Below, piece after piece: positions 1 to 17,717 of a DNA stretch of 18,588 nt; positions within the stretch are counted from its first letter, which is position 1; the number at the start of each line of letters is the position of its first letter. The DNA is from Trueperaceae bacterium. Its GTDB lineage: Bacteria; Deinococcota; Deinococci; Deinococcales; Trueperaceae. Under the pieces are notes generated by a model, which was not told the origin of the DNA, searched no databases, and worked only from the letters and a program-made list of their open reading frames with translations. Both the position numbers and the translations under genes were made by a program. Location: assembly GCA_040905465.1 (NCBI GenBank), contig JBBDRK010000070.1, positions 1 to 18,588 on the forward strand. Direction: 5' to 3'.

Positions 1-223
1 AGTGACGCCGGTAGGTGTCGATCTTGCGCCTGAGGAGCTCCTTGGAGTAGAGGGCAGCGGTTCCGACGGCGACCTTGGCGAGGTCGATAGCGTCGTGGGC
101 AAGCTCGAGCAGGTCCTCGGCTGCCCCCAGGGGCAGTCCGAAGTCGACCATCATGGTGAGTTGGTTGTCGCGTGGTTTGGGGGTCTTCTCGCGTACGGGG
201 ATGTTGGGGTAGGCGCGATTCAT
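1..223 (-). CDS. comA: Phosphosulfolactate synthase (ComA family), N-terminal 74 aa; continues past the window edge
   Basis: Manual translation from ATG at 223: MNRAYPNIPVREKTPKPRDNQLTMMVDFGLPLGAAEDLLELAHDAIDLAKVAVGTAALYSKELLRRKIDTYRRH. It fits the ComA N-terminal pattern KPR-x3-LTM-x2-D-x-G ... EDLLE ... ID-x2-K-x3-GT-x2-LY ... LRxKI-x2-Y-x2-H. Absent from the ORF track. Confidence 0.88.
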   Translation of the reverse strand, partial: MNRAYPNIPVREKTPKPRDNQLTMMVDFGLPLGAAEDLLELAHDAIDLAKVAVGTAALYSKELLRRKIDTYRRH

Positions 224-242
224 CGGTAGCCAGAGCGGTTGC

Positions 243-264
243 GGGGCGGGCTCTCGCCCGCCCC
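243..264 (-). other. GC-rich stem-loop 3' of tctC (mRNA stabiliser or partial terminator)
   Basis: Minus strand GGGGCGGGC-GAGA-GCCCGCCCC: perfect 9-bp stem, GNRA tetraloop, 7 nt after the tctC stop, no U-tract. Confidence 0.7.
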
Positions 265-271
265 CACGAAC

Positions 272-1219
272 CTACTCCTGAATGAACCCCTGAAGGTCGG
301 CGGCCTCGCCCAGTACCCGGTCGACGATCTCAGCGTATTCGTCGCTGGGCATGAACCTGGGCGTGAGGTCGACGGCCTCGAGCTTGGCCACTACTTCCGG
401 GTCGGTGACGACATCTTCCATCGCCGCCTCGAGGCGAGCGCGGATCTCCTCGGGGACATCGGGTGAAACGGCCCAGCCGTAGTACATCCTCACGACGTGG
501 TCGTAGCCGAGGTCTTCGAGGTTGGGCACATCGTCGAAGCCGAATGCGGAGAGGTCGCCATCGGTGATGACGGCCAGCATGTTCAGCTCGCCGTTCTTGG
601 CGGCCTGCCAGGCGGGGGTACCCACGCCGGTCTCGCCGATCTCGACGTGACCTCCCAGGAGTGCGGCCGAACCTTCGGCACCGCTCTCGAACGGGATGTG
701 TACGATATTGACCCCATCTTCCTTGGCCATCGCCTTGACTACGTTGCCGGCCCAGAGCGCGCCACCGTCGGCGAAGCGCACGCGATTCTCCGCGGCGTGT
801 TCGATCAGGCCTTCGAAGTCGGAGAACGGGGCGGAAGGGTGTCCGAAGAGCACCCGCTCCTGCGGCATGTAGCTACCCAACAGGGCGACGCCGTCCATGG
901 TGAAATCGCGGTCAAGCAGGACGGTATTGGCGAAGATGTCGGTAGTTACCGCGACAATGGTGTGGCCGTCGTTCTCGCGCATGGCTTCCGAGAAGCCCAG
1001 GTAGCCGCCTGCTCCGGGCCGGTTGACTACGTCTACCCGCCCACCCAGCCTCTGCTCCAGGGCGGTGGCGAGGATCCTGTTCGACAGGTCGGTCATTCCT
1101 CCGGCGCCGTAGGGGATGACTACCGTGATCGGTTTCGACGGGAAGCCGTCCTGTGCCAGCGCCGACGGGAAAAGCAGCGTGGCCAAGGCCAGCAGGGCGA
1201 TCGAGGTTCTCTTCAACAT
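272..1219 (-). CDS. tctC: Tripartite tricarboxylate transporter substrate-binding protein (TctC/Bug family)
   Basis: Signal peptide ending ALA-Q. Motifs FPSKPITVVIPYGAGGMTD, VVNRPGAGG, DGHTI, HIPFESGAE-x3-ALLGGHV, DVPNLEDLGYD. SD AAGGAG upstream. Confidence 0.93.
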   Translation of the reverse strand: MLKRTSIALLALATLLFPSALAQDGFPSKPITVVIPYGAGGMTDLSNRILATALEQRLGGRVDVVNRPGAGGYLGFSEAMRENDGHTIVAVTTDIFANTVLLDRDFTMDGVALLGSYMPQERVLFGHPSAPFSDFEGLIEHAAENRVRFADGGALWAGNVVKAMAKEDGVNIVHIPFESGAEGSAALLGGHVEIGETGVGTPAWQAAKNGELNMLAVITDGDLSAFGFDDVPNLEDLGYDHVVRMYYGWAVSPDVPEEIRARLEAAMEDVVTDPEVVAKLEAVDLTPRFMPSDEYAEIVDRVLGEAADLQGFIQE

Positions 1220-1282
1220 GAATCTCTCCTTCGAAAAGTGAGTCGTAGTTGCGTGAGGCGTGAACCGGTTCCTGTTACCTCC

Positions 1283-2821
1283 CTATGGCTCCATTGTGGC
1301 AGGGGAGCGGGATTTTCTCTGGCGCCTGATCGACTGGTAACCCAGAAAGAGCAAGGCGAGCGCCGTCAGGATGAGGAAGGCGAGTGAAATCGGTTGCTGC
1401 AGGAATACGGTGAGGTCGCCGCCTCCCAGCAGCAGCGAGCGGCGTACCGCGGTCTCCAGCAGGGGGCCCAGGAAGAACGCGATGACCACGGGAATCACCG
1501 AGATCTTCATGAGCCTCAGGAAGTAGCCGAAGACACCGAACAGGAACATCATCGTTACGTCGAACATGTTGGTCCCGACAGCGTAGGCGCCGATCGAACA
1601 GAACATGACGATGAGCGGGAAGATGACCTCCCGGGGCAAGGTCTGGACGCGAGTCGCCAGCTTTATGTAGAAGTGCCCGACGAACAGGATGACGATGTTG
1701 GAGACGATGAGCGTGAGGAAAAGGGCGTACAGCAGGTGACCCTGGTCGCGCATCAGGAACGGTCCGGGCGTGAGGCCGTGGATCATGAAGGCGCCCAGCA
1801 GCAAGGCCGCAACGAGATTGCCGGGAATCCCGAGGGTCACCAGGGGAATAAGGTTGGCGCCCTGCACGGCGCTGTTGCCCGCTTCCGGGGCGGCGATACC
1901 TTCTTCGATCCCGGTGCCGAACTTCTCCGGCTGCTTGGACATGCGGCGCGCCGTCTCGTATGACAGGAAGGCGCCGACCGTCGCTCCGATACCGGGCAAG
2001 GCACCTATCCCGGTGCCCAGCAGGCCGGAGCGGAGCATGGTGGGGAAGAGCCTGCGGTAGTCGCGCCAACTGACGTGGCTCGTGTCGCCTGCGAGTGTCG
2101 CATCGTCTCTTGGTGGCGGCGGCGGTTCCCGGTAACGCAACTGGCTGAATGCCTCTGAGAGCACCAGCAGCCCCAGGAGCAACGGCACCAGGTTGATTCC
2201 GTCCTCGAGCGTGAGGAGCCCGAACGTGAACCGCTCGGTGGCCAGAAAATCGTCCCTGCCGACCGTTCCCAGCAGCAGGCCGATACCGATACCTATCATG
2301 CCCCGGACGGGGAACGCCCCGGTTGCCGTGGCGATGACCACCAGCGAGAACAGGATTATGGCCGAGTATTCGATCGGACCGATCTTGAGGGCGATCGCCG
2401 CCAGCGGCGCTGCCACCAGGAGGAGGATGAAGTCGCTGATCAAGTCGCCGGTTGTCGAGGCGTAGTGCGCGATCTCGAGGGCCTTCTTGCCCTCCCCCTT
2501 CTTCCGCATGGGAAACCCGTCCAAGGCGGTCGCCGTGGCTTGCGGTGTTCCCGGCATGTTGAAGAGGATCGCGGGGATACTCCCGCCAAAAGAGCCGCCC
2601 TTGGCGACGGCCATCAGCGCCACGATCCCGGTCAAGGGGTTGAAGAAGAAGGTGAACGGCACCAGCAGGGCGATTGCCATGTCGGCGGTGAGACCGGGTA
2701 TGGAGCCGAGGACGATGCCGAGAGTGACGCCTATCATCACGGCGATCAGGTTTTCGACGGTGAAGACGAGCGATAGTGCTAGTACGAGATCAGGCATCGA
2801 AGCGGGGCTTTCGCCCTCCAA
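1283..2821 (-). CDS. tctA: Tripartite tricarboxylate transporter large permease (TctA)
   Basis: Polytopic ~500 aa with repeated TctA motifs GSIPGL...GGSIPAILFNMPGTP and GALPGIGA...GIAAPEAGN...IPLVTLGIPG. Start is TTG 2821 or ATG 2797. Confidence 0.95.
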   Translation of the reverse strand: MEGESPASMPDLVLALSLVFTVENLIAVMIGVTLGIVLGSIPGLTADMAIALLVPFTFFFNPLTGIVALMAVAKGGSFGGSIPAILFNMPGTPQATATALDGFPMRKKGEGKKALEIAHYASTTGDLISDFILLLVAAPLAAIALKIGPIEYSAIILFSLVVIATATGAFPVRGMIGIGIGLLLGTVGRDDFLATERFTFGLLTLEDGINLVPLLLGLLVLSEAFSQLRYREPPPPPRDDATLAGDTSHVSWRDYRRLFPTMLRSGLLGTGIGALPGIGATVGAFLSYETARRMSKQPEKFGTGIEEGIAAPEAGNSAVQGANLIPLVTLGIPGNLVAALLLGAFMIHGLTPGPFLMRDQGHLLYALFLTLIVSNIVILFVGHFYIKLATRVQTLPREVIFPLIVMFCSIGAYAVGTNMFDVTMMFLFGVFGYFLRLMKISVIPVVIAFFLGPLLETAVRRSLLLGGGDLTVFLQQPISLAFLILTALALLFLGYQSIRRQRKSRSPATMEP

Positions 2822-2883
2822 TTCAAGAAATAGGCAGCGGGTTGGCCGCTGCTACCGTCAGGCTAAATTGCCGACACGACGCA

Positions 2884-2892
2884 TTTATACCA
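2884..2892 (-). promoter_or_regulatory. Putative extended -10 promoter for tctA-tctC-comA
   Basis: Minus strand TGG-TATAAA (TGn + TATAAA) about 60 nt upstream of the tctA ORF, in an AT-rich patch. No clear -35. Confidence 0.45.
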
Positions 2893-3335
2893 TTGTGGCC
2901 CGAGCGCTCGCCTTGGCTTGGGCGGGTGGTCAGCGGCGTCACAGCCACGTCTCATCCGTGAAGCGACGACCATACAAACGCACAGGTCCCTCCCGCGCAC
3001 CTTCAGGTAACCCGCCGATACTTCGTCGGCAAGAACAGTGCGTCGCGATGATCGAGAGGGTTCACCGCATGTTTCATGACGACTTATGGCGTCGATTTGA
3101 CACTCGTATCGTACGACGCCCACTGAGACGTCCGGCGCTCTGGTTGCCGGCCGAGCAGATCGTGCTCGTCAGGGGCGCGCAGGCTACTGTTCGCGCCGGA
3201 GTCACTCGTGAACCGGGTTTCGAGGAACCCGTAGACATTACCGCCATTCTCCTGCCAGACGGCGGACAGCTCGGTTGCCCCTCAGTCATCGAGAACGTGA
3301 AGCGAGCGTGCGTGCGATGCTCGCGAATCTACGAA

Positions 3336-4106
3336 TTACCCCAACCCGGTAATCATCGATACGATCTCGTTCTTGTCGACCGAGCTGGTCTCCCGCTCGC
3401 CCACCTGCACGCCTCGCCTGAGGACCGAGACACGGTCGGAGATGCGGAAGACCTGGTCGAGGTTGTGACTGACGACGAGTATCGCCAGGTTGCGCGCGCG
3501 TAGCGACTGGATGATCGACTCGACCTTGGCGGTCTCGGCCACGCCCAGCGCCGCCGTTGGTTCGTCCATGAGCACCAGTTTGCTGGCCCAATGGGTGGCT
3601 CTGGCTATCGCGATTCCCTGGCGCTGGCCACCGGAGAGACCCAGGACGAGCGCCTGTGCCGACGGTATCCGCACGTCCAGGTCCCTCACCTGCGTCTCTG
3701 TCTCGGAGATCATCCGCGGGCGGTCCAAGCGGCCGAAAGGTCCCTTGCTCAACTCCCGGCCGAGGAACATGTTCATGTAGACGGGCTGGTTGTCGGCCAG
3801 CGCCAGGTCCTGGTAGACGACCTCGATGCCCAGGTCGCGGGCGGAACTGGCGCTAGAGAGGGTCACCTCTTCGCCGTCGAGGAACATCTGGCCGGAGGTC
3901 GGCTGGTAGACCCCGGAGATCATCTTCACCAGGGTCGACTTGCCGGCGCCGTTGTCCCCGACAAGTGCGACTATCTCGCCGGGATAGAGGTCGAGGCTGT
4001 ACTCCTGGATGGCCACCACTCCGCCGAACGCCTTGTGGAGCTTGCGCAGGTGGAGGGTCGGCTCTCCGGACGCTACCGCTGCGGCCGCCGCTTCAGCCGT
4101 CGCCAC
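3336..4106 (-). CDS. Monosaccharide-type (CUT2) ABC transporter ATP-binding protein, single NBD
   Basis: Walker A GDNGAGKST, Q-loop VYQDLAL, signature LSGGQRQ, Walker B LVLMDEPTAALG, H-loop VSHNL. Overlaps the upstream gene by 14 nt. Confidence 0.95.
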   Translation of the reverse strand: MATAEAAAAAVASGEPTLHLRKLHKAFGGVVAIQEYSLDLYPGEIVALVGDNGAGKSTLVKMISGVYQPTSGQMFLDGEEVTLSSASSARDLGIEVVYQDLALADNQPVYMNMFLGRELSKGPFGRLDRPRMISETETQVRDLDVRIPSAQALVLGLSGGQRQGIAIARATHWASKLVLMDEPTAALGVAETAKVESIIQSLRARNLAILVVSHNLDQVFRISDRVSVLRRGVQVGERETSSVDKNEIVSMITGLG

Positions 4107-5328
4107 GGTCCCCCTGCCGGTCCGCGGGGACGCCCTGCAATTCGACGCGGTTGCCGAGTCCGTCGTAGATGCCTTCGATCTTCGCCTCGCCTCGCGATAT
4201 CCCGCTAACGCCTGCGGTGTTGGCCCTGGTGACGAAGGCCTGGGCTCGGAAGCCGAACACCACCGAGTCGCCCGGCGCCGGTCTGGAAGGACCGGAGGAA
4301 CTGTCGATCATCCCGTAGTAGTCGATAGCCGAGGGCGGGGGGATCTCCACGTCGTAGAGTCGCTCTGCCGCGACCGTTGGCTCGGAGGAAACGAGCGCCT
4401 TGACGTCGTAGGCGGGAAAGACCGGGTCGATGTAGAGGCCGCCACCGAAGCAGAAGGCGTCGCCGTGGTGCAGGTGCGAGACCTCACTCAGATAGAGGGC
4501 GGCAGGCACCTCGGGCAGATCCTCGAGGGCGTGCCAGGGGGTGGTGCCGGTGAGCCCGTGCCCCGGCTCGCACTGGGTCGCCCCGGCGGCTCGGAGAATC
4601 TCGAGAACGCTCATCGAGCTGGTGCCGGGGGCGTTGATCTCGAAGCCGGAATAGCCGGCCTCGACCAACGCCGCGGCCGCCGTCTGCAGGGTGGCGAGGT
4701 TCGGCGTCGGCTTGACCGACCGCGACTCCTGGTCGAAGAGGAGAGCCGGGAAGGTGGTGATTCCCGCGAACCGGCCGCCGGAGACACCGTCGAGCATGGC
4801 GGCGACCTCGACGATGTCGTACGCCGGGAAACCGCCTTCGTGGCCCCGGTAGAAGGTGTCTCCGGGAGCGTGGATGCGGGCCATCAGAGGCTGGTTGCGG
4901 CCGACGTCCTGGCTTGCCTGCGCCGCGGCCCTCGCTTTCTCCTCGCTGTAGACGGTCCAGTAGTCCGGCTCGAGGCGCGCCGCTTCAGCCGATTCGCTCC
5001 TCGGTATTTGCACCAGGTGGCCGAGGTGGCCTATGCCCAGTCCCGCTCGCTTGCAGGCCCGTGCTCCTGCCATGTCGACGGCGACGACCTTGTCGATGCC
5101 TCCGCGGATCAGGGCTCGGGCGAAGGCCGGGTTGCGGCCCATCTGCTTCGTCATCGCCAGGACCTCGAGGCCCAGCCGGCCTGCTTCCACCTTGATCACT
5201 CGGGCGTTCGCCTCGACGCTATCGAGGTCGATGACGAGGGTATTGGGCGGGAGCAGTCCCTGCTGGTGGAGGGATATTGCAGTTTCGACGAAGCGAGGGT
5301 TACGCCGCCTGAGGACTTCGAGGAACAC
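4093..5328 (-). CDS. yhfX: YhfX-like fold-type III PLP-dependent enzyme (alanine racemase N-terminal domain family)
   Basis: MFLEVLRRRNP...LHQQG...VIDLD...AMTKQMGRNP (predicted PLP Lys), VAVD, GHLVQIP, EPGHGLTGTTP, LYLSEVSH, CFGGG, IDYY and FRAQAFVTR all resemble E. coli YhfX as recalled. Confidence 0.88.
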   Translation of the reverse strand: MFLEVLRRRNPRFVETAISLHQQGLLPPNTLVIDLDSVEANARVIKVEAGRLGLEVLAMTKQMGRNPAFARALIRGGIDKVVAVDMAGARACKRAGLGIGHLGHLVQIPRSESAEAARLEPDYWTVYSEEKARAAAQASQDVGRNQPLMARIHAPGDTFYRGHEGGFPAYDIVEVAAMLDGVSGGRFAGITTFPALLFDQESRSVKPTPNLATLQTAAAALVEAGYSGFEINAPGTSSMSVLEILRAAGATQCEPGHGLTGTTPWHALEDLPEVPAALYLSEVSHLHHGDAFCFGGGLYIDPVFPAYDVKALVSSEPTVAAERLYDVEIPPPSAIDYYGMIDSSSGPSRPAPGDSVVFGFRAQAFVTRANTAGVSGISRGEAKIEGIYDGLGNRVELQGVPADRQGDRGDG

Positions 5329-5334
5329 TGGCGA

Positions 5335-6300
5335 TCACCTTCCTGTCTTTTCGCGGAGCGTCAGGGAGACGGCGATGAGGATGATTGCTCCGCGCACGAT
5401 CATCTGCTGTGACACCGACAGGCCCATCAGGATGAGTCCGTTGTTGAGCATGCCCATGAGCAGGGAGCCGACAAGGGCGCCCACAATCGAGCCCTTCCCA
5501 CCGAAGAGCCTGGTACCGCCCACGATCACGGCGGCGATCACCGTCATCAGGTCGGTTTCGCCGAGGGTGTAGCGCGCCGCCTGCAAGCGGCCCGCGTAGA
5601 GAAGGCCGGCCAGGGCCGCTGAGCTCGAACTGATCACCAGCACCAGGATCCGGATCCGGTCCACCCGGATCCCCGACACCCGGGCGGCTTGGCGGTTGTC
5701 CCCCGTAGCGAGGACATGGGCGCCGAACTTCGTCTCCCTGTAGACGAGGTGCCCGACGGCGACGATGCCGACAGTCCAGATCACCAGCGATGGGATGCCG
5801 AACAGCGAGCCCGAGCCGAACAGGTTGTTGAAGGTGGAGTTCAGGACGGATACCGATCGCAAGTCCGTCAGGGTACGAGCGACTCCGGCGATGAGCCCCA
5901 TCATCGCCAGCGTTACTAGGAACGACGGGAGCCGGAGCTTGGTCACGAACAGTCCGTTCACCAGGCCCACCGCCGCACCGGCGCCAAGGCCCGCCAGTAC
6001 GCCGACGATGAGTGGATAGTCCTGAAGGACGACTGCAGATATCAGGGCAGACAGTGCTACGACCGAGCCGATGGAGAGGTCGATCTCACCGGCGGTGAGT
6101 ACGAAGGCGAAGCCGACGGCCATGACGGTTATCGGTGCGGCCTGCCGCACGATGTTGAGCAGGTTGCGTGTAGTCAGGAAACCGTCGTCCCAGAGGACGG
6201 CGGCGAAGAATGCCAACACCAGCAGGAACCCTACGTACACTACGTAGCGGCTGGGGTCGATACGTCTGAGTCGGCTTCCCAACACTCCTGCGCCCTTCAT
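5335..6300 (-). CDS. Sugar ABC transporter permease (RbsC / BPD_transp_2 family)
   Basis: FLTTRNLLNI, GEIDLSIGS, GLVNG, LPSFLVTL, GDNRQAARVSGI, IAAVIVGGT-x2-FGGKGS; many transmembrane segments. Confidence 0.95.
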   Translation of the reverse strand: MKGAGVLGSRLRRIDPSRYVVYVGFLLVLAFFAAVLWDDGFLTTRNLLNIVRQAAPITVMAVGFAFVLTAGEIDLSIGSVVALSALISAVVLQDYPLIVGVLAGLGAGAAVGLVNGLFVTKLRLPSFLVTLAMMGLIAGVARTLTDLRSVSVLNSTFNNLFGSGSLFGIPSLVIWTVGIVAVGHLVYRETKFGAHVLATGDNRQAARVSGIRVDRIRILVLVISSSSAALAGLLYAGRLQAARYTLGETDLMTVIAAVIVGGTRLFGGKGSIVGALVGSLLMGMLNNGLILMGLSVSQQMIVRGAIILIAVSLTLREKTGR

Positions 6301-6398
6301 GTGTGCGCTCTCGAGGAATGCGCTCCTAAAGGATTCGCCTTCGAAGGATATCTGTGCCGCGGGCTGGACATGAGAGCGGAAACGCTAAATAGGTGAGT

Positions 6399-6424
6399 TG
6401 GGGCGTCCTAAGACGGACGCCCCA
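6399..6424 (-). other. Stem-loop between binding-protein and permease genes
   Basis: Plus strand TGGGGCGTCC-TAAGAC-GGACGCCCCA: perfect 10-bp stem 9 nt after the binding-protein stop. No U-tract on the minus strand. Confidence 0.7.
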
Positions 6425-6433
6425 GGAATGCGA

Positions 6434-7495
6434 TTACTCTATCGCGCGAAGGATCGACTGGGGCGGCTCGCGGTTGAGCGACTCCTGATAGCCTTCCTCG
6501 ATGTTCGCGGTGGTGATGGTCAGCGCCGGAGCCACGATGAAGGGTGGTGCTTCCTTGTCGAGCAGGCCGTAGGCCGCCGTGGTGGCCATGGTGCGGCCGA
6601 GCTCGTAGGCGGCGTCCGCCACGATGGCAACTACGTTTCCACCACGGACCATGTCGAGTGCGATCGGCTCGCTGAGGTCGAGGGTAACTATCTTGGTCGA
6701 GGCGTTGCCCTGAGAGCGCAGTGCGGCCAGGAAGCCCTCGGCCGGCTCCGCCCAAGTGACGTAGATGCCGCCCAGGTCCGGGTTGCGGATCAGCAGCGCC
6801 TGGGCGATCTCCTCTGCCCGGGCGGGGTCGGCGATTCCCGCGGAGTCGACGATCTCGATGTTCGGGTAGTCGTTCTCGATGGTCGTCTTGAAGGCGTTGT
6901 CCCGCTGGTTGGTCACGTAGTACTCGGCGTCGTGAAAGACGAAGGCGACCTCGCCCTCCTCGCCCATGGCGCTCGCCAGGGCGTCCGCCGCCTGCTTGCC
7001 CATCTGGAAGAGGTCGTCGGTTACGGTTGCGACGAAATCCTCACCCTGCTCGTAGCCGGCGGCGGTGTTCGACAGGAATACCAGTTGAACACCCTCCTCT
7101 ACCGCCTCGCGGAACGCCTCGGCGGCAACGACGGCATCGAGCGGAAGCGAGAGGATGACGTCCGGACCGCGGGTCATCACCGTCTCCACGTCGCTCCTCT
7201 GCCGGGCGGCATCGAACTGGGCGTCGGTCGTGGCGACTACCTCGATGCCCAGGCGCTCGAACTCGTCGGTCGCGCCCTGCGACACCGCATTTATGAAGTC
7301 GGACGAGGTGTGCCAGACGAATGCGGCGGTGTAGTCACCCTCCCTTACCTGGACGACCTCCTCCTCGGTGAGGGTTATCTCGGCCGAAAGTGTGGCCGGC
7401 TCTCCGTTAGGGCCGGTGGTCTCGGTCTGCTGGGCGAGTGCGGCGGCAAGCGTGCCGGCGAGGAGCAATGCAACAAGATGCCTGAAGAGTTTCAT
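6434..7495 (-). CDS. Sugar ABC transporter substrate-binding protein (RbsB-like periplasmic binding protein type 1)
   Basis: Signal peptide ending ALA-Q; TDAQFDAARQ, PDVILSLPLD, MGKQAADAL, RDNAFK, NPDLGGIY; adjacent to the permease. Confidence 0.92.
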   Translation of the reverse strand: MKLFRHLVALLLAGTLAAALAQQTETTGPNGEPATLSAEITLTEEEVVQVREGDYTAAFVWHTSSDFINAVSQGATDEFERLGIEVVATTDAQFDAARQRSDVETVMTRGPDVILSLPLDAVVAAEAFREAVEEGVQLVFLSNTAAGYEQGEDFVATVTDDLFQMGKQAADALASAMGEEGEVAFVFHDAEYYVTNQRDNAFKTTIENDYPNIEIVDSAGIADPARAEEIAQALLIRNPDLGGIYVTWAEPAEGFLAALRSQGNASTKIVTLDLSEPIALDMVRGGNVVAIVADAAYELGRTMATTAAYGLLDKEAPPFIVAPALTITTANIEEGYQESLNREPPQSILRAIE

Positions 7496-7510
7496 GCCAA
7501 TACTTCCTCT

Positions 7511-8761
7511 CTACTGCTTAGAAGGAACGACACCGCAATAGTCGGCCATGAAGGCGGCAAGTGCGACAATTCCGGAACTGTAGTCGGCCAGATTCACCCT
7601 CTCCTCTAACGTGTGGCAGTTTCGGATATCACCGGGCGCGAAGTAGATGGTAGGAATGTCGAGGTTCGTCAGGAAGGGCGCTTCCGACCAGTAGGGGGCG
7701 CCGGAAACGCCAGCGCGGCCCTCTGCCGCCTCGTTTACCGCTTGGAGGAGCTTTGTGATCGCCGGATGCCGCGGGTCGACCTCCGTGGGCGTCCCCCCGA
7801 ATCGGTTGTCCCTGCCAGCGGGAAACCGGATGTCCACCGAGATCTCGGGGTCGTTCACGGCCGACCTGACCACCTTCTCGAGCTCTGCTGCGGCGGAACC
7901 CAGGTCCTCGCCGGGGAGAAGCTTGCGGATCAGCGAGAGCCTGCACTCGCCCGGAACGGCGATGTAGCCGCCGGAGTTCATCTCCGTCACCAGCAGGAAC
8001 GACTTGCCGACGAGCTCGTGCTCGGCCCGACCTGCCAGGTCGTCCGAGTGCGCCCAAAGGTGGTCGAGCACGGCGTGACCCGCCCTGAGGGCGTCCCTGC
8101 CCAGCTCGGGAAACCCGAAGTAGGCGGACCGGCCCTTGATCTCGATCTCGGTGATGAAGAATCCCATCTGGGCGCTGTAGACCTCCAGGTTGGTGGGTTC
8201 TAGATAGATGGCGAAGTCGGGTCGGCGGAGTTTGCCCTTTTCGATCAGGGCCGCGAACTCCTTCATTCCGGCGCTCACTCCCATGCCCGGCTCGCCGCTC
8301 TCCTCGTCGCCGATGAACGCGAGCTGCACGTCGCCGGCCAGTTCGATGCCGGCTCGCTCGAGGAGCTTCACGGCCGATATGGCGGCGCAGATTCCCGCCT
8401 TGAGGTCTCCGGCGCCGCGTCCCCAGATCTCTCCGTTCTCGATCGCTCCGCTGAAGGGGTCTTCGCGCGTGGTGCCCGCCCAGCGCTCCTTCCAGCCGTC
8501 GACGTGAACCGTGTCGGTGTGGCCGACGAGAAGGAGGTCCTTTCCGCCACCTTCACTGCGGACCACGCCCCAGACGTTGGGCCGCCCGGCTTCGAACTCC
8601 CGTTGCTCGATTCCCGACGCGGGAAGATTCTTCAGTTCATCGGCGAGGAACCCGGCGAAGCCGGCCTCGGTCCCGGTGATGCTGGGGGTGGCGATCGCTC
8701 GCCTGAGCAGATCTACCGCCTCCGCTTCATCCAGGTGCCGGCGAAGTTCCGAAGCGTTCAT
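7511..8761 (-). CDS. M20 family metallo-amidohydrolase (ArgE/DapE-like deacylase)
   Basis: Metal-site motifs GHTDTV, GRGAGDLK, DEE, LEPT and C-terminal CHTLEE; TPSITGTE; ATGA overlap with the ROK stop. Confidence 0.92.
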   Translation of the reverse strand: MNASELRRHLDEAEAVDLLRRAIATPSITGTEAGFAGFLADELKNLPASGIEQREFEAGRPNVWGVVRSEGGGKDLLLVGHTDTVHVDGWKERWAGTTREDPFSGAIENGEIWGRGAGDLKAGICAAISAVKLLERAGIELAGDVQLAFIGDEESGEPGMGVSAGMKEFAALIEKGKLRRPDFAIYLEPTNLEVYSAQMGFFITEIEIKGRSAYFGFPELGRDALRAGHAVLDHLWAHSDDLAGRAEHELVGKSFLLVTEMNSGGYIAVPGECRLSLIRKLLPGEDLGSAAAELEKVVRSAVNDPEISVDIRFPAGRDNRFGGTPTEVDPRHPAITKLLQAVNEAAEGRAGVSGAPYWSEAPFLTNLDIPTIYFAPGDIRNCHTLEERVNLADYSSGIVALAAFMADYCGVVPSKQ

Positions 8762-9969
8762 CCGCTGCTACTGACTGGCGCCATGGTCAGAGTCGGTACC
8801 GCCGGTACCGAGGTGATCAGGCCGCTGCCGTGGGTGAGCCGGTGGAGCTCTTCGATGCCGTAAGCGAGGGCTCCTTCGATCCCGGCGCGCCTTCCCAGGC
8901 TGCTCGCTTCGACGACGGGGGGTCGGCGCATGCACTCCTCCAGCTTCCTCCTGATGCGCTCGAGCAGCTCGGGTCTGCCGCCGATGCTGCCGCCGAAGAT
9001 CACCTTCTCGGGGTCGATCAGGGCGGCGGTAGCGGCTACCCCCAGAGCCAAGCGGGAGCCGATCTCGTCGAGCACCAGGGCGGCTCTCCTCTCTCCGTCC
9101 TCTGCCCGCTGGAACAGCTCCCGGACCGTCTCGCACTCGCCACCCTCGTCCCGGTAGAGGCGGAGTATGGCCTTGCTGCCGACGGCCGACTCGAAAGCGC
9201 CGACCGATCTCGCCTGTTCGGTGAAAGGATCGGTGCAGAGCGGCAGGTAGCCTATCTCTCCGGCCGTGCCGCTCGCGCCGCGGAGCAGCTTGCCGTCCAG
9301 CATTATCCCCTGGCCGATTCCAGTGCCCAGGGCGATGAAGACGAGGTCGTCGACCCCCTGCCCTGCGCCGCGCCACCTCTCGCCGATGACCGCGAGGTTC
9401 ACGTCGTTCTCGACGATGACCGCGATGCCCAGGACATGGCGCAGCTCGTCCTCTACGCGTAGTCGATCGAAGCCGGGTATGTTGGGTGCGAACTCGATAA
9501 AGCCGCTGACAGGATCTACGACACCTGGCGTGCCTACCACGGCCAGACGTACCTTCTCCCAGCCGGCAGCCGGCCGTTCCGCCAACCTCCTGCATATCTC
9601 CGCAATCTGGGCGATTATCTGCGGGCCGCCCCGAGGGCTGGTGGGTACGGTCTCCTGCGCGACCAGATCGCCCGTCATGTCGGCGAGGGCCACGGTCAGG
9701 CTGGTTCCACCCAGGTCGACTCCGACGATGTAGGCGGAGTCGGGGACGATCTGGTAGAGGACGGCGGAGCGGCCGACCTTCCCCTTCGACAGGCCGGTCT
9801 CCTCGATCCAACCGGTCTCCTCAAGCAGCCTGACGATCTCGGACGACGTCTGCTTGGACAGGCCGGTCTCGCGCGAGATTCCGGCTCGAGAGATCGGTCC
9901 CTTCTCGAGGATCGCCGTCATCACTGCGTGAGTAGAAACCTGCCTTGAGATCGAGTTGCGCCGCTGCAA
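8758..9969 (-). CDS. ROK family transcriptional repressor (HTH + sugar-kinase-like domain)
   Basis: N-terminal HTH (GPISRAGISRETGLSKQT), VGVDLGGT, VENDVN, GTGIGQGI, AGEIGY. TTG start with GGAGG 6 nt upstream. Confidence 0.95.
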   Translation of the reverse strand: MQRRNSISRQVSTHAVMTAILEKGPISRAGISRETGLSKQTSSEIVRLLEETGWIEETGLSKGKVGRSAVLYQIVPDSAYIVGVDLGGTSLTVALADMTGDLVAQETVPTSPRGGPQIIAQIAEICRRLAERPAAGWEKVRLAVVGTPGVVDPVSGFIEFAPNIPGFDRLRVEDELRHVLGIAVIVENDVNLAVIGERWRGAGQGVDDLVFIALGTGIGQGIMLDGKLLRGASGTAGEIGYLPLCTDPFTEQARSVGAFESAVGSKAILRLYRDEGGECETVRELFQRAEDGERRAALVLDEIGSRLALGVAATAALIDPEKVIFGGSIGGRPELLERIRRKLEECMRRPPVVEASSLGRRAGIEGALAYGIEELHRLTHGSGLITSVPAVPTLTMAPVSSSG

Positions 9970-9988
9970 GCGGAGCCTCCAATGCGAA

Positions 9989-10013
9989 TTAGTTCGGTTG
10001 TAGAACGAACTTT
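9989..10013. promoter_or_regulatory. Putative ROK operator (XylR-like palindrome)
   Basis: TTAGTTCGGTTGTAGAACGAACTTT contains AGTTCG-N9-CGAACT. It overlaps the -10 box and predicted start site of the ROK operon. Confidence 0.7.
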
Positions 10014-10037
10014 AGCGCTGAGGCTCTCGGATGTCAA
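10009..10037 (-). promoter_or_regulatory. Sigma70-type promoter of the ROK operon
   Basis: Minus strand TTGACA (10037-10032), 17 nt, TAAAGT (10014-10009); about 40 nt upstream of the ROK start. Confidence 0.75.
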
Positions 10038-10164
10038 CTGCTGCTTTGGCTGGATCTGGAGTCCGTCGTTAGCTGCCAGGATTCGAAAGGCGCCCCAGCC
10101 TTCGGATGGTTTCGCCGTAGAGTTCGTAAGGCCGCAACCGACACCGGACGCCATAGACTGGATC

Positions 10165-11157
10165 ATGAAATCGCCGATCCCGCGCCAGGCAGTGCTCTCT
10201 CTGACGCTCCTCCTGCTGGTGTCGGCAGCGCTGGCTCAGCCGAGACAGCCGAGCGATGGAGCCCTCTACCTAAGAACCAGTGAGCGCGGTCGTGCCCTGC
10301 TGGCTTCTCTACACCTCTATCCACCGGATGGCGCCGAACTGCGGCTGCTCGAGGCGCCCGCCAGGCCCAATGGAGAGGCGAGCGAAGAGTCGAGCGTAGA
10401 GTTGACCCTCACCGCCCCGTACCTCGAGCACGAGACGCAGATCGAGGTCAGCGCTGAAACTTGGACGTTCATCGCCGGCAACTTGCGCGACGGGACCCTC
10501 GATCCGCACGGAGAGGCTGTGCTTCACCTTTACGATCTCGAACCGCTCGAGTTCGAGGCAATAGGCACCGTGATACTTGGCGGTTTGCGCTTCGCCGACG
10601 GTTCCTTCGCGGTGCAGCGCTGGGCGCCGTTCTTCTACTCGGATCCCTGGGCCGGGGCGCTCTTCGATGTGTCGGTCGATGAGTTTGCCCGCGCAGGGCT
10701 GGAGCAACGTAGGGAGTTGCCCGAGAGCCCGGTAGGCACCTTCACAGAGTCTCAGACAGTGTTCGTTACGGCGTTCGACTGGGATCTGCTCAGCTACTAC
10801 ACCCTGATCGATACATACACGGGCGGTGCTCATCCCAACAGTTGGCGGGAGGCCACGACCTTAATGACTGATGGAACCGGTAGCTGGGCGGAGGTCGGCG
10901 ATGTCTGTGCGGCGGTCCTACGCATCGGCTGGGAGTGCGAAGAGTCGTCCTTGAGATTGGACGTTGTCGACGAGTTGCGGCTGCAGGAGGCGGTCTGGGT
11001 GGAGCAGGGCGAGGTGACCCACCAGACGGAGTGGCTGCTGGATACGTTCGTCCTCACTCCCGGAGGGGTGCGCTTCCTGTTCGATCCGTACGACGTGGGG
11101 CCGTACGCGCAGGGGCCGTTCGAGGTGGACATACCCTATGGGGAGCTGGGTGAGTGA
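10165..11157 (+). CDS. Exported protein with C-terminal DUF3298/RsiV-like domain (~330 aa)
   Basis: ATG 10165 gives signal peptide MKSPIPRQAVLSLTLLLLVSAALA-Q. YTGGAHPN and FVLTPGGVRFLFDPYDVGPYAQGPFEVDIPY are typical of DUF4163/DUF3298. The track start 9982 lies in the ROK promoter region. Confidence 0.8.
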   Translation: MKSPIPRQAVLSLTLLLLVSAALAQPRQPSDGALYLRTSERGRALLASLHLYPPDGAELRLLEAPARPNGEASEESSVELTLTAPYLEHETQIEVSAETWTFIAGNLRDGTLDPHGEAVLHLYDLEPLEFEAIGTVILGGLRFADGSFAVQRWAPFFYSDPWAGALFDVSVDEFARAGLEQRRELPESPVGTFTESQTVFVTAFDWDLLSYYTLIDTYTGGAHPNSWREATTLMTDGTGSWAEVGDVCAAVLRIGWECEESSLRLDVVDELRLQEAVWVEQGEVTHQTEWLLDTFVLTPGGVRFLFDPYDVGPYAQGPFEVDIPYGELGE

Positions 11158-11202
11158 GCCGACGCCGGGAACCGAAGGCTTCCGTTAGCCGGCCGACAGC
11201 AA

Positions 11203-11397
11203 CTACTCACTTTTCGGATCGTCGCCTTCGCTCGTGTCGCTCACCGATTCCGGCTGGCGCTTTCGGCCGGAGGCGCTGAAGGCGGCTCCGAGAGCCACGC
11301 CTATCGCCACGCCGGCGCCGACGTTGTCCATGGCCACGCCGATCGCTATGCCCACGCTCAGGCCTACCGGCAGCCCCAGCATTTTCTGTCGCGTCAT
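11203..11397 (-). CDS. Small glycine-zipper membrane protein (64 aa)
   Basis: Repeated GxxxG (GLPVGLSVGIAIGVAMDNVGAGVAIGVALG) forming a helical hairpin, then a charged tail; starts 8 nt after the upstream stop. Confidence 0.75.
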   Translation of the reverse strand: MTRQKMLGLPVGLSVGIAIGVAMDNVGAGVAIGVALGAAFSASGRKRQPESVSDTSEGDDPKSE

Positions 11398-11405
11398 GCC
11401 GCAGC

Positions 11406-12104
11406 CTACTGTAGAGACGAGTCTGCCGACGCGTACTGGAGTGCGGAGGGCGTTTGGCGACCGACGATCGCCGGAGCCTCATGGATCAACGCGTCGTTCG
11501 TCAGGACCTCGACCATAAACAAGGCAAAGTCGACGCGACGAGTGATGTTGCTCGCCAAAACGGGGTCGCCTACGTGGCGGCTCCAGACGGGCAGACCCTG
11601 GCTGTCGCCCTCTTCGAGATCGCTTCCGCGCACGACCGTCCAGCGAGCGTCGCTCGCGAACACCCGCCGGCATGCCTCCACCTGATCGTCGATTTGCATG
11701 ATGCCGAGCATGCGCGCAAGCCACGTAACGAGCGCAGCGAACCGCTTGAAGCCTCGTGTGTAAATGTCCTGACCGTCGCGGGTGATGTGCCACCCGCAAG
11801 AGAAAACCAGGCGCGCGCCCGGAGGCGAATAGTCGAGCACCGCCTGGGCCGTCCCCGACGCGTATTGCTGCATTCCCCACGGGACCAGCACGGTGAGCAC
11901 GCCGTCGCAGCTCACTACCGCTCTTTTGATGACTGCGCGGTCGTTTGTGGCGCCGGGAACGACGGTGATGCGCTCCTTGAACCGCTCGAGCCTTTTGACG
12001 CTCTTCTCGCGGCACACCCCTACGACCTCGTACCCACGATCCAGGGCGTGCTGCACCATGTACTGCCCCAGCTTGCCCGAAGCGCCGACGATGCATACTC
12101 TCAT
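11406..12104 (-). CDS. NAD(P)-binding oxidoreductase (atypical SDR, flavin/biliverdin reductase B-like)
   Basis: N-terminal Rossmann motif VCIVGASGKLG, ALDRGYEV, WTVVR, ITRRVDFALFM. Confidence 0.85.
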   Translation of the reverse strand: MRVCIVGASGKLGQYMVQHALDRGYEVVGVCREKSVKRLERFKERITVVPGATNDRAVIKRAVVSCDGVLTVLVPWGMQQYASGTAQAVLDYSPPGARLVFSCGWHITRDGQDIYTRGFKRFAALVTWLARMLGIMQIDDQVEACRRVFASDARWTVVRGSDLEEGDSQGLPVWSRHVGDPVLASNITRRVDFALFMVEVLTNDALIHEAPAIVGRQTPSALQYASADSSLQ

Positions 12105-12463
12105 CGCGGTCGTCCCTCGCGTGGCGATCCGGTCAAGCCTGGCGATATGCCGTGTTTCAGGGCGTTGGGTTTCATACGGGGCTCTCCATATCTGGGAGGA
12201 CGCTCGACTTTATACTCTCTGCCGATCTGACGACGTTACGGGCCAAGTCGGCGATGCCCGTGAGGCGGCGGCGGCTGGCTGTCTTGCCGCGGCGTCTTGG
12301 AGTATGCCGGGGCTAACGCTCACCCAATTTCCTCCGCCTACTAACGGCCGGACTTCCATGTCCAAGGCAGACTATTCGGCTTGTGCCGGATCTCATATCC
12401 ACAAGTATGGTGGGTAACGATACTTAAGGACCATTATCGGCGGCGGAGTCCTGGAGGTCGAAG

Positions 12464-12868
12464 ATGCAAGCGAGCGGACTGCGGTCAGTCGCAACACCAG
12501 CGAAGAGGCTGGGCGGATACGTGCTTGACGTACTCTATTCAACTCTAGCCATGGGTGTGCTTTCGGCTCTGGTGCCGGCCGAGGGCGATGGCGGTGGCCA
12601 AATTTTTCTCCTGTTCTTAGGCTACGTAATCGTTGGAGTCTACTTCTGGTCCAAGGGCACGAGCCCGGGAAAGATGACTCTCGGTATGTACGTGTACAAC
12701 CGGGCTACGAGTGAGCGACTCGGCTTCTGGAGCATGCTTCTGCGCGAAACCATCGGGAAATGGTTGAGCGGTTTTGTTCTTGCGCTCGGTTACCTCTGGA
12801 TTCTCTTCGACGACGACAATCAAGGCTGGCACGACAAGCTGGTGAACTCCGTCGTGCTCGAGGGGTAG
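12464..12868 (+). CDS. RDD family membrane protein
   Basis: KRLGGYVLD, GTSPGKMTLGM, LLRE, QGWHDKLVNSVV; GGAGG SD upstream. Confidence 0.9.
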   Translation: MQASGLRSVATPAKRLGGYVLDVLYSTLAMGVLSALVPAEGDGGGQIFLLFLGYVIVGVYFWSKGTSPGKMTLGMYVYNRATSERLGFWSMLLRETIGKWLSGFVLALGYLWILFDDDNQGWHDKLVNSVVLEG

Positions 12869-13201
12869 TAGGCCCGGATCCGCCGCTGGCTGGGCACGTT
12901 CAGCTCCCGGACCTTCCCCCGGTCTGGTTACCAGTCGCCGGCGCCGTCGACGAACGTCTACCTCAGGTCGGCGTGTCGACCCTGGCCATCATCTTCATCC
13001 CGTTCGACTTGGCCGGTCGACCGGGTGTATGTTAATCTCAACAGCTGCACCCGAAAAGCCAATTGTGCCCCCATTCCAGTGATCACGGGAACACGTGGCG
13101 GAGAAACCGCGACCCAGCCGCGACACGCGTCACAAGTTCGTCTCGTGCCACCGTCAGTCGTTCGCTCTCTGAAAGTGGCAGTCGTTACGAGAGGAGACTG
13201 G

Positions 13202-15625: not shown

Positions 15626-15639
15626 GTCCGGTCAAATGC

Positions 15640-15756
15640 ACTTGTGAGGTGTGGCAGAGACTCACTGGTGCAGCGATGCATAGATGCGGTAACGAAGTGG
15701 TGCACCCGGAGGGGTGCACCCAACGGCAGTGAGGATTCATCTGCAAATCCGCAAGT
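15640..15756 (+). ncRNA. Candidate structured RNA or inverted-repeat element between convergent genes
   Basis: Nested pairings ACTTGTG/CGCAAGT, GCAGA/TCTGC, CTCACTG/CAGTGAG enclose GTGCA-GCGA-TGCAT and GGTGCACCC-GGAG-GGGTGCACC. Folded by eye only. Confidence 0.35.
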
Positions 15757-15761
15757 AAGAT

Positions 15762-16340
15762 TCAACCCAGAATTTCGTCGATCTTGAGCCGCAGGTGTGT
15801 AACCGAAGCGGACTCGACTCCCTCTCCAGGATGCATTTCCTCGACGAGTTCATAGCCTTGGGCAGAGGGGGTCGAGTGAACAGACACCAACTGCGCCTTC
15901 AGATCTACCAGCCAGGCCTCGGGAACTCCTGCCCGGGCGTAGAGGGGAAGCTTTATCTCGCGGTCGTAGGTTAATGAGCTTTCGGCTACCTCGATGACTA
16001 GCAGGGTATCTTTGGCTGACGGGTGGGCGCCTGAGTAGAAATCAGCCCTCGAGCGAACGGTTGCTACGTCTGGCTCGAACTCCGTCATCTCGCTCAATAT
16101 CAGTGGCTCCTGAACACGTACCAAGAACGACTCTTCGACTCGGCTGACGAGTAGCTGAGTCAGTCGTGTAACGCAGGCGGAGTGCCGGCTGCCCTTCGGA
16201 GCCATGGTAACGACCTCGCCCTCTACCAACTCGACACGTTCGTCGTCGAAGATATTGCTGGTGCCCATCCTGTGGTACTCCTCGACTGTGAAGGTTCGCT
16301 TGATGAGGTCAATTGACACGACTGCAGCCTCCTCTGACAC
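15762..16340 (-). CDS. Uma2 family (DUF820) putative restriction endonuclease-like protein
   Basis: FTVEEYHRM, ERVELVEGEVVTMAP-x3-RH, EPDV, LLVIEVAESSLTYDREIKLPLYARAGVPEAWLVDL. Start is more likely GTG 16340 (6 nt after TATACT) or GTG 16319 (after GGAGG) than 16454. Confidence 0.92.
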   Translation of the reverse strand: MSEEAAVVSIDLIKRTFTVEEYHRMGTSNIFDDERVELVEGEVVTMAPKGSRHSACVTRLTQLLVSRVEESFLVRVQEPLILSEMTEFEPDVATVRSRADFYSGAHPSAKDTLLVIEVAESSLTYDREIKLPLYARAGVPEAWLVDLKAQLVSVHSTPSAQGYELVEEMHPGEGVESASVTHLRLKIDEILG

Positions 16341-16564
16341 GCCAAAAGTATAGCGGGGACCAGCATGGATGTATGTGGACGAACGGGCAAACCTATTTCC
16401 ACGGTCGAGGAGAGAAAACTCTCCGCCTCGATATATTGCCCGTACTCCCCCCACTGCAACGTGCGTGAGTACTACTTCTCGGGGCAGGACGCCGCTATCT
16501 CATGCTGACGCGTGGCATAATCGAATCCCGTCCCGGGGAAGCTGGCATTTGAGAGGAGAGGGTT

Positions 16565-17008
16565 ATGAGAAGACCGATCGTTCTGGCATTCATCGTCGCT
16601 CTGACCGTGCTTATGGCCGGGTGCGCTCCCGCCACGGTGGGCAACGGTTTCGCTGCCGACCTGACCGCGTCCGCCGAGTTTCCCGCACCGACCCTCGATG
16701 GCGCGACTCCTTCAGGCAGCGCAACGGCCGTGCTCGACAGTGCAAACAACACGCTCACCCTGTCAGGAACATTCTCCGGCCTCACCGGCCCGGCAACCGG
16801 CGCTCACATCCATGGGCCGGCGGGTGTCGGCGAGACGGCCGGCGTACTGTTTCCGTTGCAGGTGGACACGGCCGCGAGCGGCAGCATCTCGGGAACCTGG
16901 ACCGACATGACCGCGGAACAGGTCCGGCAACTGCGCGACGGCTTGTACTACGTGAACATCCATACCGAAATGAACGCCGCCGGCGAGATTCGGGGACAAC
17001 TCAGATAG
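16565..17008 (+). CDS. CHRD domain-containing lipoprotein
   Basis: Lipobox MAG-C; AHIHGPA and GLYYVNIHT-x2-N-x2-GEIRGQL are CHRD hallmarks; GAGGAG SD. Confidence 0.93.
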   Translation: MRRPIVLAFIVALTVLMAGCAPATVGNGFAADLTASAEFPAPTLDGATPSGSATAVLDSANNTLTLSGTFSGLTGPATGAHIHGPAGVGETAGVLFPLQVDTAASGSISGTWTDMTAEQVRQLRDGLYYVNIHTEMNAAGEIRGQLR

Positions 17009-17019
17009 CAGACCCTTGG

Positions 17020-17474: not shown

Positions 17475-17717
17475 CCTCCGGGCCATCACTCCGTTACCCC
17501 GGCCGTCAGGAGTGCCCGGCTCCCGCTCGACCCCGGGTCGATAGCCGTCGCTTTCACACGGACAGTATATCGGCCAGGCGGAAAGCCTCCCGTCAGCGAG
17601 AGGGAAGCCCAGCGGGACCAGAGGCACTTTCAGAACCGGCACGGGCGAAGAGCTCGCCCGCCGCCGAACGAGACCCCCACCAAAATCACGAACCTCTTGA
17701 CAATTCGCCTTCTCCGG

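Follow-up and report, generated by a model that had tools for sequence, protein, structure and literature searches.

A conserved operon pairs the orphan enzyme YhfX with an M20 hydrolase and a sugar-type importer

What do enzymes of the YhfX family do? A crystal structure of YhfX has existed since 2014, yet the portions of articles returned by a full-text literature search held neither a functional study nor a functional assignment, as the initial annotation of the DNA described here had supposed, and a full-text search on COG3457 gave no literature match. Here, we describe a stretch of 18,588 nucleotides from a Trueperaceae bacterium of the phylum Deinococcota (assembly GCA_040905465.1, contig JBBDRK010000070.1, positions 1 to 18,588; hereafter the window), in which a YhfX-like pyridoxal phosphate (PLP) enzyme is encoded together with an M20 metallo-amidohydrolase, a sugar-type ATP-binding cassette (ABC) importer, and a ROK regulator. 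This cassette is the simplest setting in which YhfX occurs, with one importer, one regulator, and two enzymes. It offers a practical route to the function of the family, pairing a sugar-type importer with a deacylase and a vitamin-B6 enzyme. The six genes are best explained as a single catabolic operon under ROK control that is passed between lineages whole. Tentatively, and at a little less than an even chance, we read it as a two-step route in which the M20 enzyme would unmask an amine and the YhfX-type enzyme would then perform elimination-type chemistry.

The six genes are co-directional on the minus strand of the window (3336 to 9969). In order of reading, they encode the ROK regulator (8758 to 9969), the M20 hydrolase (7511 to 8761), a sugar-type substrate-binding protein (SBP; 6434 to 7495), a single ABC permease (5335 to 6300), the YhfX-like enzyme (4093 to 5328), and an ABC ATPase of 256 amino acids (3336 to 4106). 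The initial annotation had described six tightly linked genes with exactly two enzymes, yhfX lying between the permease and ATPase genes, and all of this is correct. The ROK and M20 genes overlap by 4 bases and the YhfX and ATPase genes by 14 bases, while 6 bases separate the permease and YhfX genes. The remaining gaps measure 6 to 15 bases, except for a spacer of 133 bases between the SBP and permease genes. These overlaps and gaps, the long spacer excepted, fit one transcript, and the layout suggests that all six genes are transcribed together. The spacer houses an inverted repeat at 6399 to 6424 (arms 6399 to 6408 and 6415 to 6424; 10 bases, 100% complementary, 6-base loop), which might act as an intercistronic hairpin.

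This arrangement is conserved across genomes. We assembled a genome set with one genome per species (the best 80 loci from among 272 relatives), in which neighbors were counted by tblastn with the window proteins and loci with enough flank were treated as assessable. By their titles, 77 of the loci are alphaproteobacterial and 3 are labeled only “Pseudomonadota/Proteobacteria bacterium.” The full six-gene order of the window is kept in 54 of 66 assessable loci, and the arrangement is thus far from chance. The gene directly upstream of YhfX encodes the permease in 66 of 76 assessable loci, and the one directly downstream encodes the ATPase in 62 of 70. Co-occurrence of YhfX, M20, and ABC genes, without which the initial annotation would have considered its proposal refuted, is likewise conserved: M20 is found within 7.5 kb of YhfX in 69 of the 71 loci whose upstream flank is 4.6 kb or longer (all but L006 and L029), and M20 and CUT2 contexts occur in two separate YhfX clades (FastTree). 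In a variant cluster of nine loci (L014, L020, L022, L024, L028, L031, L050, L057, and L062), M20 is immediately upstream of YhfX. In those with sufficient flank, the pair is preceded by another type of ABC system, whose ATPase is double-domain. A PfkB kinase and an amidase are each present in seven loci of this cluster. Ruegeria sp. TM1040 has the cassette annotated just as it stands in the window, as megaplasmid genes TM1040_RS01745 to RS01770, and it is carried on large plasmids in Nitratireductor, Aminobacter, Rhizobium, and Sinorhizobium fredii NGR234. Its presence in the cultivable and tractable Ruegeria sp. TM1040, S. fredii NGR234, Ensifer, Thalassospira, and Nitratireductor makes its function directly testable. 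Mesorhizobium sp. WSM3224 (L023) has an expanded cluster with two YhfX paralogs, two ROK genes, three SBP genes, and a SIS gene.

The enzyme at the center of the cassette is a full-length member of its family. Both of its domains, Ala_racemase_N (PF01168; 55.2 bits) and YhfX-like_C (PF21279; 82.2 bits), exceed their Pfam cut-offs of 24.1 and 27 bits, and residues 1 to 394 align with Escherichia coli YhfX (PDB 4KBX) at about 40% identity (E 2.8e-79). A structure model built with 39 homologs (pLDDT 89.2, pTM 0.89) superimposes on 4KBX over 382 residues (Z 48.5, root-mean-square deviation 2.1). The PLP lysine is Lys61 of an MTKQ motif, a position at which 100 of the 101 full-length representatives of the family have lysine; a weak hhalign alignment (probability 1.7%) pairs it with its counterpart in the host's own alanine racemase. 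Databases label YhfX-like proteins “alanine racemase” or “predicted amino acid racemase.” The window protein matches no NCBIfam family, the alr equivalog included, and the alanine racemase of the host is a separate gene (contig C4; 326 bits to TIGR00492).

After YhfX itself, the best structural matches fall in the D-threonine aldolase/D-serine dehydratase (DSD1) group (Z 27.2 to 24.1), which uses one-base PLP chemistry on beta-hydroxy alpha-amino acids. The model matches D-threonine aldolases (Z 27.2, 25.8, and 25.7), beta-hydroxyaspartate aldolase (25.8), diaminopimelate decarboxylase (24.7), D-threo-3-hydroxyaspartate dehydratase (24.2), D-serine dehydratase (24.1), and alanine racemase (24.0). 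Foldseek TM-scores are 0.64 to 0.65 for aldolases versus 0.54 to 0.60 for racemases, and in a language-model feature search, the nearest clusters outside YhfX are D-serine-dehydratase-like. Because the margins are small, we take this as a lean toward the aldolase/dehydratase group and not as proof. Identity to the DSD1 group is only 14 to 17%, and the C-terminal domain is PF21279, whereas theirs is PF14031 (D-ser_dehydrat). An hhalign alignment with the DSD1-like protein of the host (2.3% probability) ends at residue 292, before the C-terminal domain with the metal ligands.

The YhfX family splits by context, its signature residues going with its neighbors. An exhaustive, profile-free search gave 693 cluster representatives at E ≤ 0.001, and residues were surveyed in 101 full-length sequences from the best 150, the query included. 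Position 195 is Cys in 51 of these, Ala in 29, Val in 6, Thr in 5, and Ser in 4, and positions 161, 163, 252, and 301 co-vary with it. The window protein has Ala195, His163, and Asp301, not the Cys195, Gln163, and Arg301 of the E. coli type. All 79 of 79 proteins in the genome set have Ala, Ser, or Thr at position 195 together with His163 and Asp301. We then drew on a metagenome set seeded with six distant Ala-type representatives (493 relatives, best 80 kept; residues taken from the alignment). Among its 14 Cys-type proteins, Gln163 is found in 13 and Arg301 in 11; a YhfS-like PLP enzyme is encoded next door in 8 of 11 assessable loci and M20 in 0 of 5. Php, YhfT, and YhfU are often neighbors as well, for instance on a Bacillus thuringiensis plasmid. 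The 51 Ala-type proteins have His163 in 46 cases and Asp301 in all, with M20 in 10 of 21 assessable loci and YhfS in 0 of 29. His163 and Asp301 occur in all 15 Thr-type proteins, with M20 in 0 of 7 loci.

The initial annotation had placed E. coli-type YhfX in another context whose partners are missing here, and this is what the loci bear out: none of 76 genome-set loci has YhfS next door, and the window has no YhfS, Php, YhfT, or YhfU neighbors. The window enzyme shares the family, the full-length fold, and the MTKQ lysine with the E. coli cluster (yhfS-yhfT-yhfU-php-yhfX type) but differs from that branch in neighbors and signature residues. The E. coli-type context is also sugar-flavored, with a PRD regulator and a phosphotriesterase (PTE)-family hydrolase. 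The split between Cys/Gln/Arg and Ala/His/Asp branches provides concrete residues for mutation. In two metagenome loci (L108 and L112), members of a Thr195 clade lie beside a divergent major facilitator superfamily (MFS) transporter, a Gfo/Idh/MocA oxidoreductase, and a protein of 711 to 759 amino acids without a Pfam match; L108 also has an aldo-keto reductase gene there.

Is the M20 hydrolase simply a housekeeping enzyme, a possibility that the initial annotation had set against its own proposal? The protein (Peptidase_M20 and M20_dimer domains) falls under every equivalog cut-off: it scores 117 bits to ArgE (cut-off 297.7), at most 95 to DapE (at least 284), and 54 to the LysW-lysine hydrolase (363). 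We therefore rejected assignment as ArgE, DapE, or LysK. Its best NCBIfam match is the generic ArgE/DapE subfamily TIGR01910, at 157 bits versus a cut-off of 217.6. The motifs HTD, GD, DEE, EPT, and H align with metal and catalytic positions of solved DapE and ArgE, and we take them to be the di-metal ligands and the catalytic glutamate. The host genome encodes four further M20 paralogs, with 25 to 31% identity.

The regulator and importer point to a sugar-derived compound. The regulator has both an N-terminal winged helix (MarR_2/HTH_24, residues 13 to 57) and a ROK sugar-binding domain (ROK, 166 bits), and ROK-type orthologs with 42 to 51% identity head the operon in other genomes. Its start codon (TTG) is uncertain, and the Cys-rich zinc motif of many ROK proteins is not visible in its sequence. 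The SBP (Peripla_BP_4, 130.6 bits; N-terminal signal-like stretch) has arabinose- and ribose-binding proteins as its closest solved relatives, at no more than 66 bits, and lies under every named NCBIfam equivalog cut-off (at most 54 bits). By tblastn, 35 of 74 related loci carry a further SBP gene that is paralogous to this one. The permease is of the ribose/arabinose type (BPD_transp_2, 147 bits) and scores 202 bits, below cut-off, as RbsC-like. The ATPase has a single ABC_tran nucleotide-binding domain and aligns to positions 2 to 235 of the 492-position YtfR profile, that is, to the first half of double-domain sugar ATPases. The system thus has the Peripla_BP_4 SBP and BPD_transp_2 permease common to CUT2 monosaccharide importers of the ribose, xylose, and fructose type. 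In contrast to their fused double-domain ATPase, the one here is single-domain; there is one permease gene, and an enzyme gene separates it from the ATPase gene. Single-domain CUT2-like ATPase systems exist.

How might these parts work together? The sequences show what the genes encode, that the operon is conserved, that M20 and YhfX are linked, which residues mark the branch, and which fold the enzyme has; what we infer is the order of the steps, the type of reaction, and the class of substrate. The CUT2-type ABC system, with its SBP, one permease, and single-domain ATPase, would import a sugar-derived compound, and the M20 enzyme would take off either an N-acyl group or a preceding residue to expose an alpha-amino group. 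The YhfX-type enzyme would then bind the freed amine through Lys61 and act on a beta-oxygenated alpha-amino acid, by aldol cleavage or by beta-elimination coupled to deamination. One-base chemistry is favored because the branch does not have the Cys of the E. coli type, because the nearest folds are D-threonine aldolases and D-serine and hydroxyaspartate dehydratases, and because one locus has a RidA neighbor; racemization or epimerization by this branch is less likely than elimination. Characterized members of the families to which the two enzymes belong act on alpha-amino acids, while the importer, the regulator, and the family contexts are sugar-related. The simplest synthesis of the two is a masked “sugar amino acid,” and such a compound is the most likely substrate.

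Two sub-cases, of roughly equal odds and each unlikely when taken singly, can be distinguished. An N-acyl-2-amino-2-deoxy-aldonate such as N-acetylglucosaminate could yield a 2-keto-3-deoxy sugar acid and ammonia. Alternatively, a serine- or threonine-type conjugate bearing a hexosamine could yield hexosamine, a 2-oxo acid, and ammonia, which would account for NagB-II-like, NagK-like, and GH4 neighbors as next steps. The aldonate sub-case would make the window enzymes a non-homologous counterpart of OngB and OngC. The Ong route of Pseudoalteromonas for GlcNAc1A, from oxidized chitin, comprises a deacetylase, a PLP deaminase, RidA, and a 2-keto-3-deoxygluconate (KDG) kinase (PMC9537276). This OngB-OngC-OngD-KdgK pathway shares its logic with the proposed one: the amine of a sugar amino acid is first exposed by a deacylase and then removed by a fold-type III–like PLP enzyme, with a repressor in control (PMC9537276). 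There are also differences. In the Ong pathway, the deacylase is a D-aminoacylase and not an M20 enzyme, uptake is by an SSS transporter and not by an ABC system, OngC is described as a “putative D-amino acid deaminase,” and the ong cluster includes KdgK and RidA (PMC9537276). The window enzyme, compared with OngC by description only, carries YhfX-like_C in place of D-ser_dehydrat, and the window has neither KdgK nor RidA (in related loci, Eda/KdgK 0 of 80 and RidA 1 of 80). None of the Ong families (D-aminoacylase OngB, DSD-like OngC, RidA, or KDG kinase) is encoded in the window, which is not an Ong member. Pathways that combine a deacylase with a fold-type III PLP enzyme are thus already known as a kind; what is new here are the different families and the orphan enzyme at the center. 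Literature searches on aminoaldonates returned nothing on bacterial catabolic genes of this kind, those on glucosaminate ammonia-lyase gave DgaE as the only relevant topic in the text retrieved, and those combining ROK, M20, racemase, and sugar ABC transporter returned nothing related.

Several observations weigh against the proposed elimination route. The advantage in Z of aldolases and dehydratases over racemases and decarboxylases is 1 to 3 units, most rows lying within a tie. RidA was seen only once (L006), where it follows the ATPase gene together with a DUF1349 gene. His163 could serve as a second base, allowing epimerization. Ornithine racemase OrnR, a fold-type III enzyme without the racemase tyrosine, needs a cysteine near a strand-end motif as its second base (PMC13397332). 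About half of the YhfX family carries Cys in the corresponding stretch, an FP(C/A) motif, where the window protein carries Ala, and any match of position 195 to Cys164 of OrnR is tentative. We withdrew a direct equation of Ala195 with this catalytic cysteine of the Salmonella enzyme, since the hhalign alignment to the host alanine racemase has a probability of 1.7% and the motif is shifted by one residue. The aldonate sub-case faces further points: homologs of Eda, KdgK, and DSD1-like proteins (E ≤ 1e-3) occur within 10 kb of YhfX in 0 of 80 genome loci, the commonest accessory gene is hexosamine-6-phosphate deaminase–like, an activity that this sub-case does not need, and the host already has a D-aminoacylase-like and DSD1-like cluster beside Eda and PfkB genes. 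As for the conjugate sub-case, we know of no PLP lyase for glycosylated serine or threonine, although no literature search aimed at one was made.

The commonest accessory gene encodes a two-SIS protein of the NagB-II/GlmS type. It follows the ATPase gene in 14 of 80 genome loci, and lies on the opposite strand in L029 (15 of 80 in total); 8 of 80 metagenome loci have it as well. The protein scores 265 to 318 bits to NagB-II (cut-off 430) and keeps an SQSG phosphate loop and Glu and His motifs, which we take to be those of GlmS-type isomerases. In M20-less clusters (L141 and L122), the ROK and SBP genes flank a kinase of the BadF/BadG type, with the Shewanella-type N-acetylglucosamine kinase as its sole NCBIfam match (NagK_SO3507-like, 72 to 101 bits); the same layout is found in L169 and in four near-identical copies of L141 (tblastn). 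Another kinase of this type occurs with an MFS transporter, YhfX, and a GH4 glycosidase (L104). A fructokinase-like PfkB gene, a ROK gene, and a NagB-like gene lie beside a Cys-type YhfX in L109. Other hydrolases stand where M20 would be in L177 (PTE/Php-like) and L121 (alpha/beta hydrolase). No neighbor in the related loci supports an aminocyclitol substrate.

Set against these contexts, the initial annotation survives in part. Its gene identities, the context of YhfX, the linkage of M20 and YhfX, and the idea of a sugar-like amine hold, the last being reinforced by family contexts of sugar ABC and MFS transporters, ROK and PRD regulators, sugar kinases, hexosamine-6-phosphate deaminase–like genes, and a GH4 glycosidase. 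The epimerization that it allowed for has become less likely, and its argument from the missing kinase to a non-phosphorylated substrate is weakened by the NagB-II/GlmS-type gene in 15 of 80 loci and by the NagK-like or PfkB kinases of sister clusters.

The same neighbors would suit a route for hexosamine epimers. There, M20 would deacylate an unusual N-acyl-hexosamine such as N-acetylmannosamine, and YhfX would act as a 2-epimerase on the hexosamine or its 6-phosphate, giving glucosamine or glucosamine-6-phosphate for deamination by the NagB-II-like or NagB-like enzyme. This would make linear use of all three enzymes in the seven-gene ROK-M20-SBP-permease-YhfX-ATPase-SIS operons, which are found in the 14 genome loci above, in rearranged form in L029, and in L129, L135, L146, L155, and L157. 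It also fits the NagB-II scores and GlmS-type motifs of the SIS protein, the NagK_SO3507-like kinases in the place of M20 (L141 group, L122, and L169), the NagB-I-like gene that adjoins YhfX in L109, and the racemase-like fold with His163 as a possible second base. We nonetheless regard this route as improbable. We know of no M20 enzyme that deacetylates sugars, characterized members needing an alpha-carboxylate by the scissile amide, and of no fold-type III PLP enzyme whose amine substrate bears no carboxylate; the branch does not have the Cys of the presumed racemase-type branch, and the window encodes no kinase. A broader possibility, which we consider doubtful, is that YhfX is a PLP family for amino sugars and their conjugates, and that the reaction here is new to PLP enzymes: release of hexosamine from O-glycosylated serine or threonine by beta-elimination, once M20 has trimmed the amino end, or C2 epimerization of free hexosamine. 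If so, either reaction would feed glucosamine-6-phosphate deaminase, with NagB-II-like, NagB-like, NagK-like, and GH4 neighbors as downstream steps.

Glycated amino acids or peptides (Amadori or Heyns compounds such as fructoselysine or glucoselysine) are a similarly improbable substrate. The importer would take up the glycated compound, M20 would strip an N-alpha-acyl group or an adjacent residue, and YhfX would act at the free alpha-carbon of the glycated lysine- or ornithine-like amino acid, the kinase and deglycase being encoded elsewhere or appended to the operon. M20 enzymes of the ArgE/DapE/LysK type do act on N-alpha of ornithine, lysine, and diaminopimelate, SIS is the deglycase fold, L109 has its fructokinase-like PfkB and NagB-like genes beside YhfX, and E. 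coli yhfX adjoins the frl fructoselysine operon. A PfkB kinase is likewise present in the variant cluster (7 of 80 loci), with weak and about equal scores to fructoselysine kinase, IolC, and ribokinase (46 to 48 bits). It comes without SIS, however, and the SIS genes match NagB-II, with the FrlB family not among the matches listed. Kinase and deglycase never stand together beside YhfX in the examined loci, and the window has neither an Amadori (Frl/Fra-type) fructosamine kinase nor a SIS deglycase. Moreover, the core of the cluster is M20 and YhfX, neither of which is needed in known Amadori pathways, and we know of no role for a PLP enzyme in them. Finally, the two enzymes might not be coupled at all, YhfX being an amino-acid racemase, as its annotations and racemase fold (Z 24) would have it, and M20 a peptidase that travels by chance with a neutral-sugar importer. 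This is very improbable: YhfX is inserted between the permease (66 of 76) and ATPase (62 of 70) genes, M20 is linked to it across two clades and two transporter types, every family context is sugar-related, and the host has its own alanine racemase (326 bits, TIGR00492) while the YhfX protein has no NCBIfam match.

Could the metabolism of the host decide between the sub-cases of the elimination route? Of the three Eda genes in the host genome, two lie beside PfkB kinases, and there is also a NagB-II-like gene (36% identity), so the product of either sub-case would be usable. With both the Eda-PfkB pairs and the NagB-II-like gene present, we rejected downstream capacity as a discriminator. On host contig C49 (10000 to 27000; L102), an Ong-like set comprises an Opp-type ABC system, an Amidohydro_3 protein (D-aminoacylase-like, 529 amino acids), a fold-type II PLP enzyme, and a DSD1-like enzyme with Ala_racemase_N and D-ser_dehydrat domains. 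The region also encodes a 2-hydroxyacid dehydrogenase, a creatininase, and a divergent CUT1 ABC system with a KDPG aldolase and a PfkB kinase. This D-aminoacylase-like and DSD1-like cluster beside Eda and PfkB makes a second, redundant N-acetylglucosaminate route somewhat less likely. Elsewhere on the contig (112000 to 127000; L095) are a GntR/UTRA regulator, a Peripla_BP_4 SBP, a double-domain ATPase, a permease, a 395–amino acid protein without a Pfam match, a Cof-type HAD phosphatase, BtpA, and a PfkB kinase sharing 53% identity with its counterpart in the variant M20-YhfX clusters.

The cassette was probably acquired. YhfX-like_C occurs within the phylum in this genome only (1 of 364 genomes, 263 of them at least 90% complete). 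Two same-genus genomes match parts of the right half of the window at 68 to 84% DNA identity; their matches to 3336 to 9969 are short and weak, at most 131 bases, and nearly all in the ATPase gene. The nearest YhfX proteins are encoded on metagenome contigs (76 to 83%), and named relatives are alphaproteobacterial (61 to 69%). A FastTree phylogeny of 56 sequences drew on the window, L090, L091, 20 of the 80 genome loci chosen by hand, and the 33 of 80 metagenome loci whose upstream flank was 4.6 kb or longer. In this tree, window YhfX falls in a clade of 24 rows (support 99) with the nearest metagenome and alphaproteobacterial sequences. Branching inside this clade is unresolved, so no donor can be named. 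Base composition along the window shows no break at the operon. Acquisition by transfer is the simplest reading of these sequences. If the substrate is indeed an oxidized-chitin product or a glycosylated amino acid, the cassette would mark a widespread route for scavenging nitrogen and carbon in marine and soil Alphaproteobacteria, one that also appears to cross phylum borders by gene transfer.

Control of the operon may begin at a sigma-70-like promoter 5′ of the ROK gene (10009 to 10037, minus strand; TTGACA-17-TAAAGT, 10 of 12 matches), which is a consensus match only. Three such sites occur in the region versus 0.9 expected from shuffles, and this one, read from 10037 to 10009, forms the right border of the stretch that the initial annotation had marked (3336 to 10037). 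The adjacent open reading frame (ORF), which encodes a DUF3298 protein (9982 to 11157, plus strand), is probably called too long, with a signal-peptide-like stretch from residue 62. Such an overextended start would leave a divergent control region of about 195 bases between the DUF3298 and ROK genes. Directly 3′ of the operon, 272 to 2821 (minus strand) encodes a TctC-like receptor and a TctA membrane subunit of a tripartite tricarboxylate transporter. We rejected these as part of the operon, as they are not in the 80 related loci, save for one 33% TctA match 8.6 kb away. Farther to the right, 13025 to 15625 (plus strand) holds an ORF of 866 amino acids with no Pfam or NCBIfam match and 84% DNA identity in a same-genus genome, 15762 to 16454 (minus strand) encodes a putative endonuclease of the Uma2 family, and 17175 to 17729 (minus strand) holds an ORF of 184 amino acids that matches Peptidase_C26 only at profile positions 15 to 92 of 219 and is possibly truncated.

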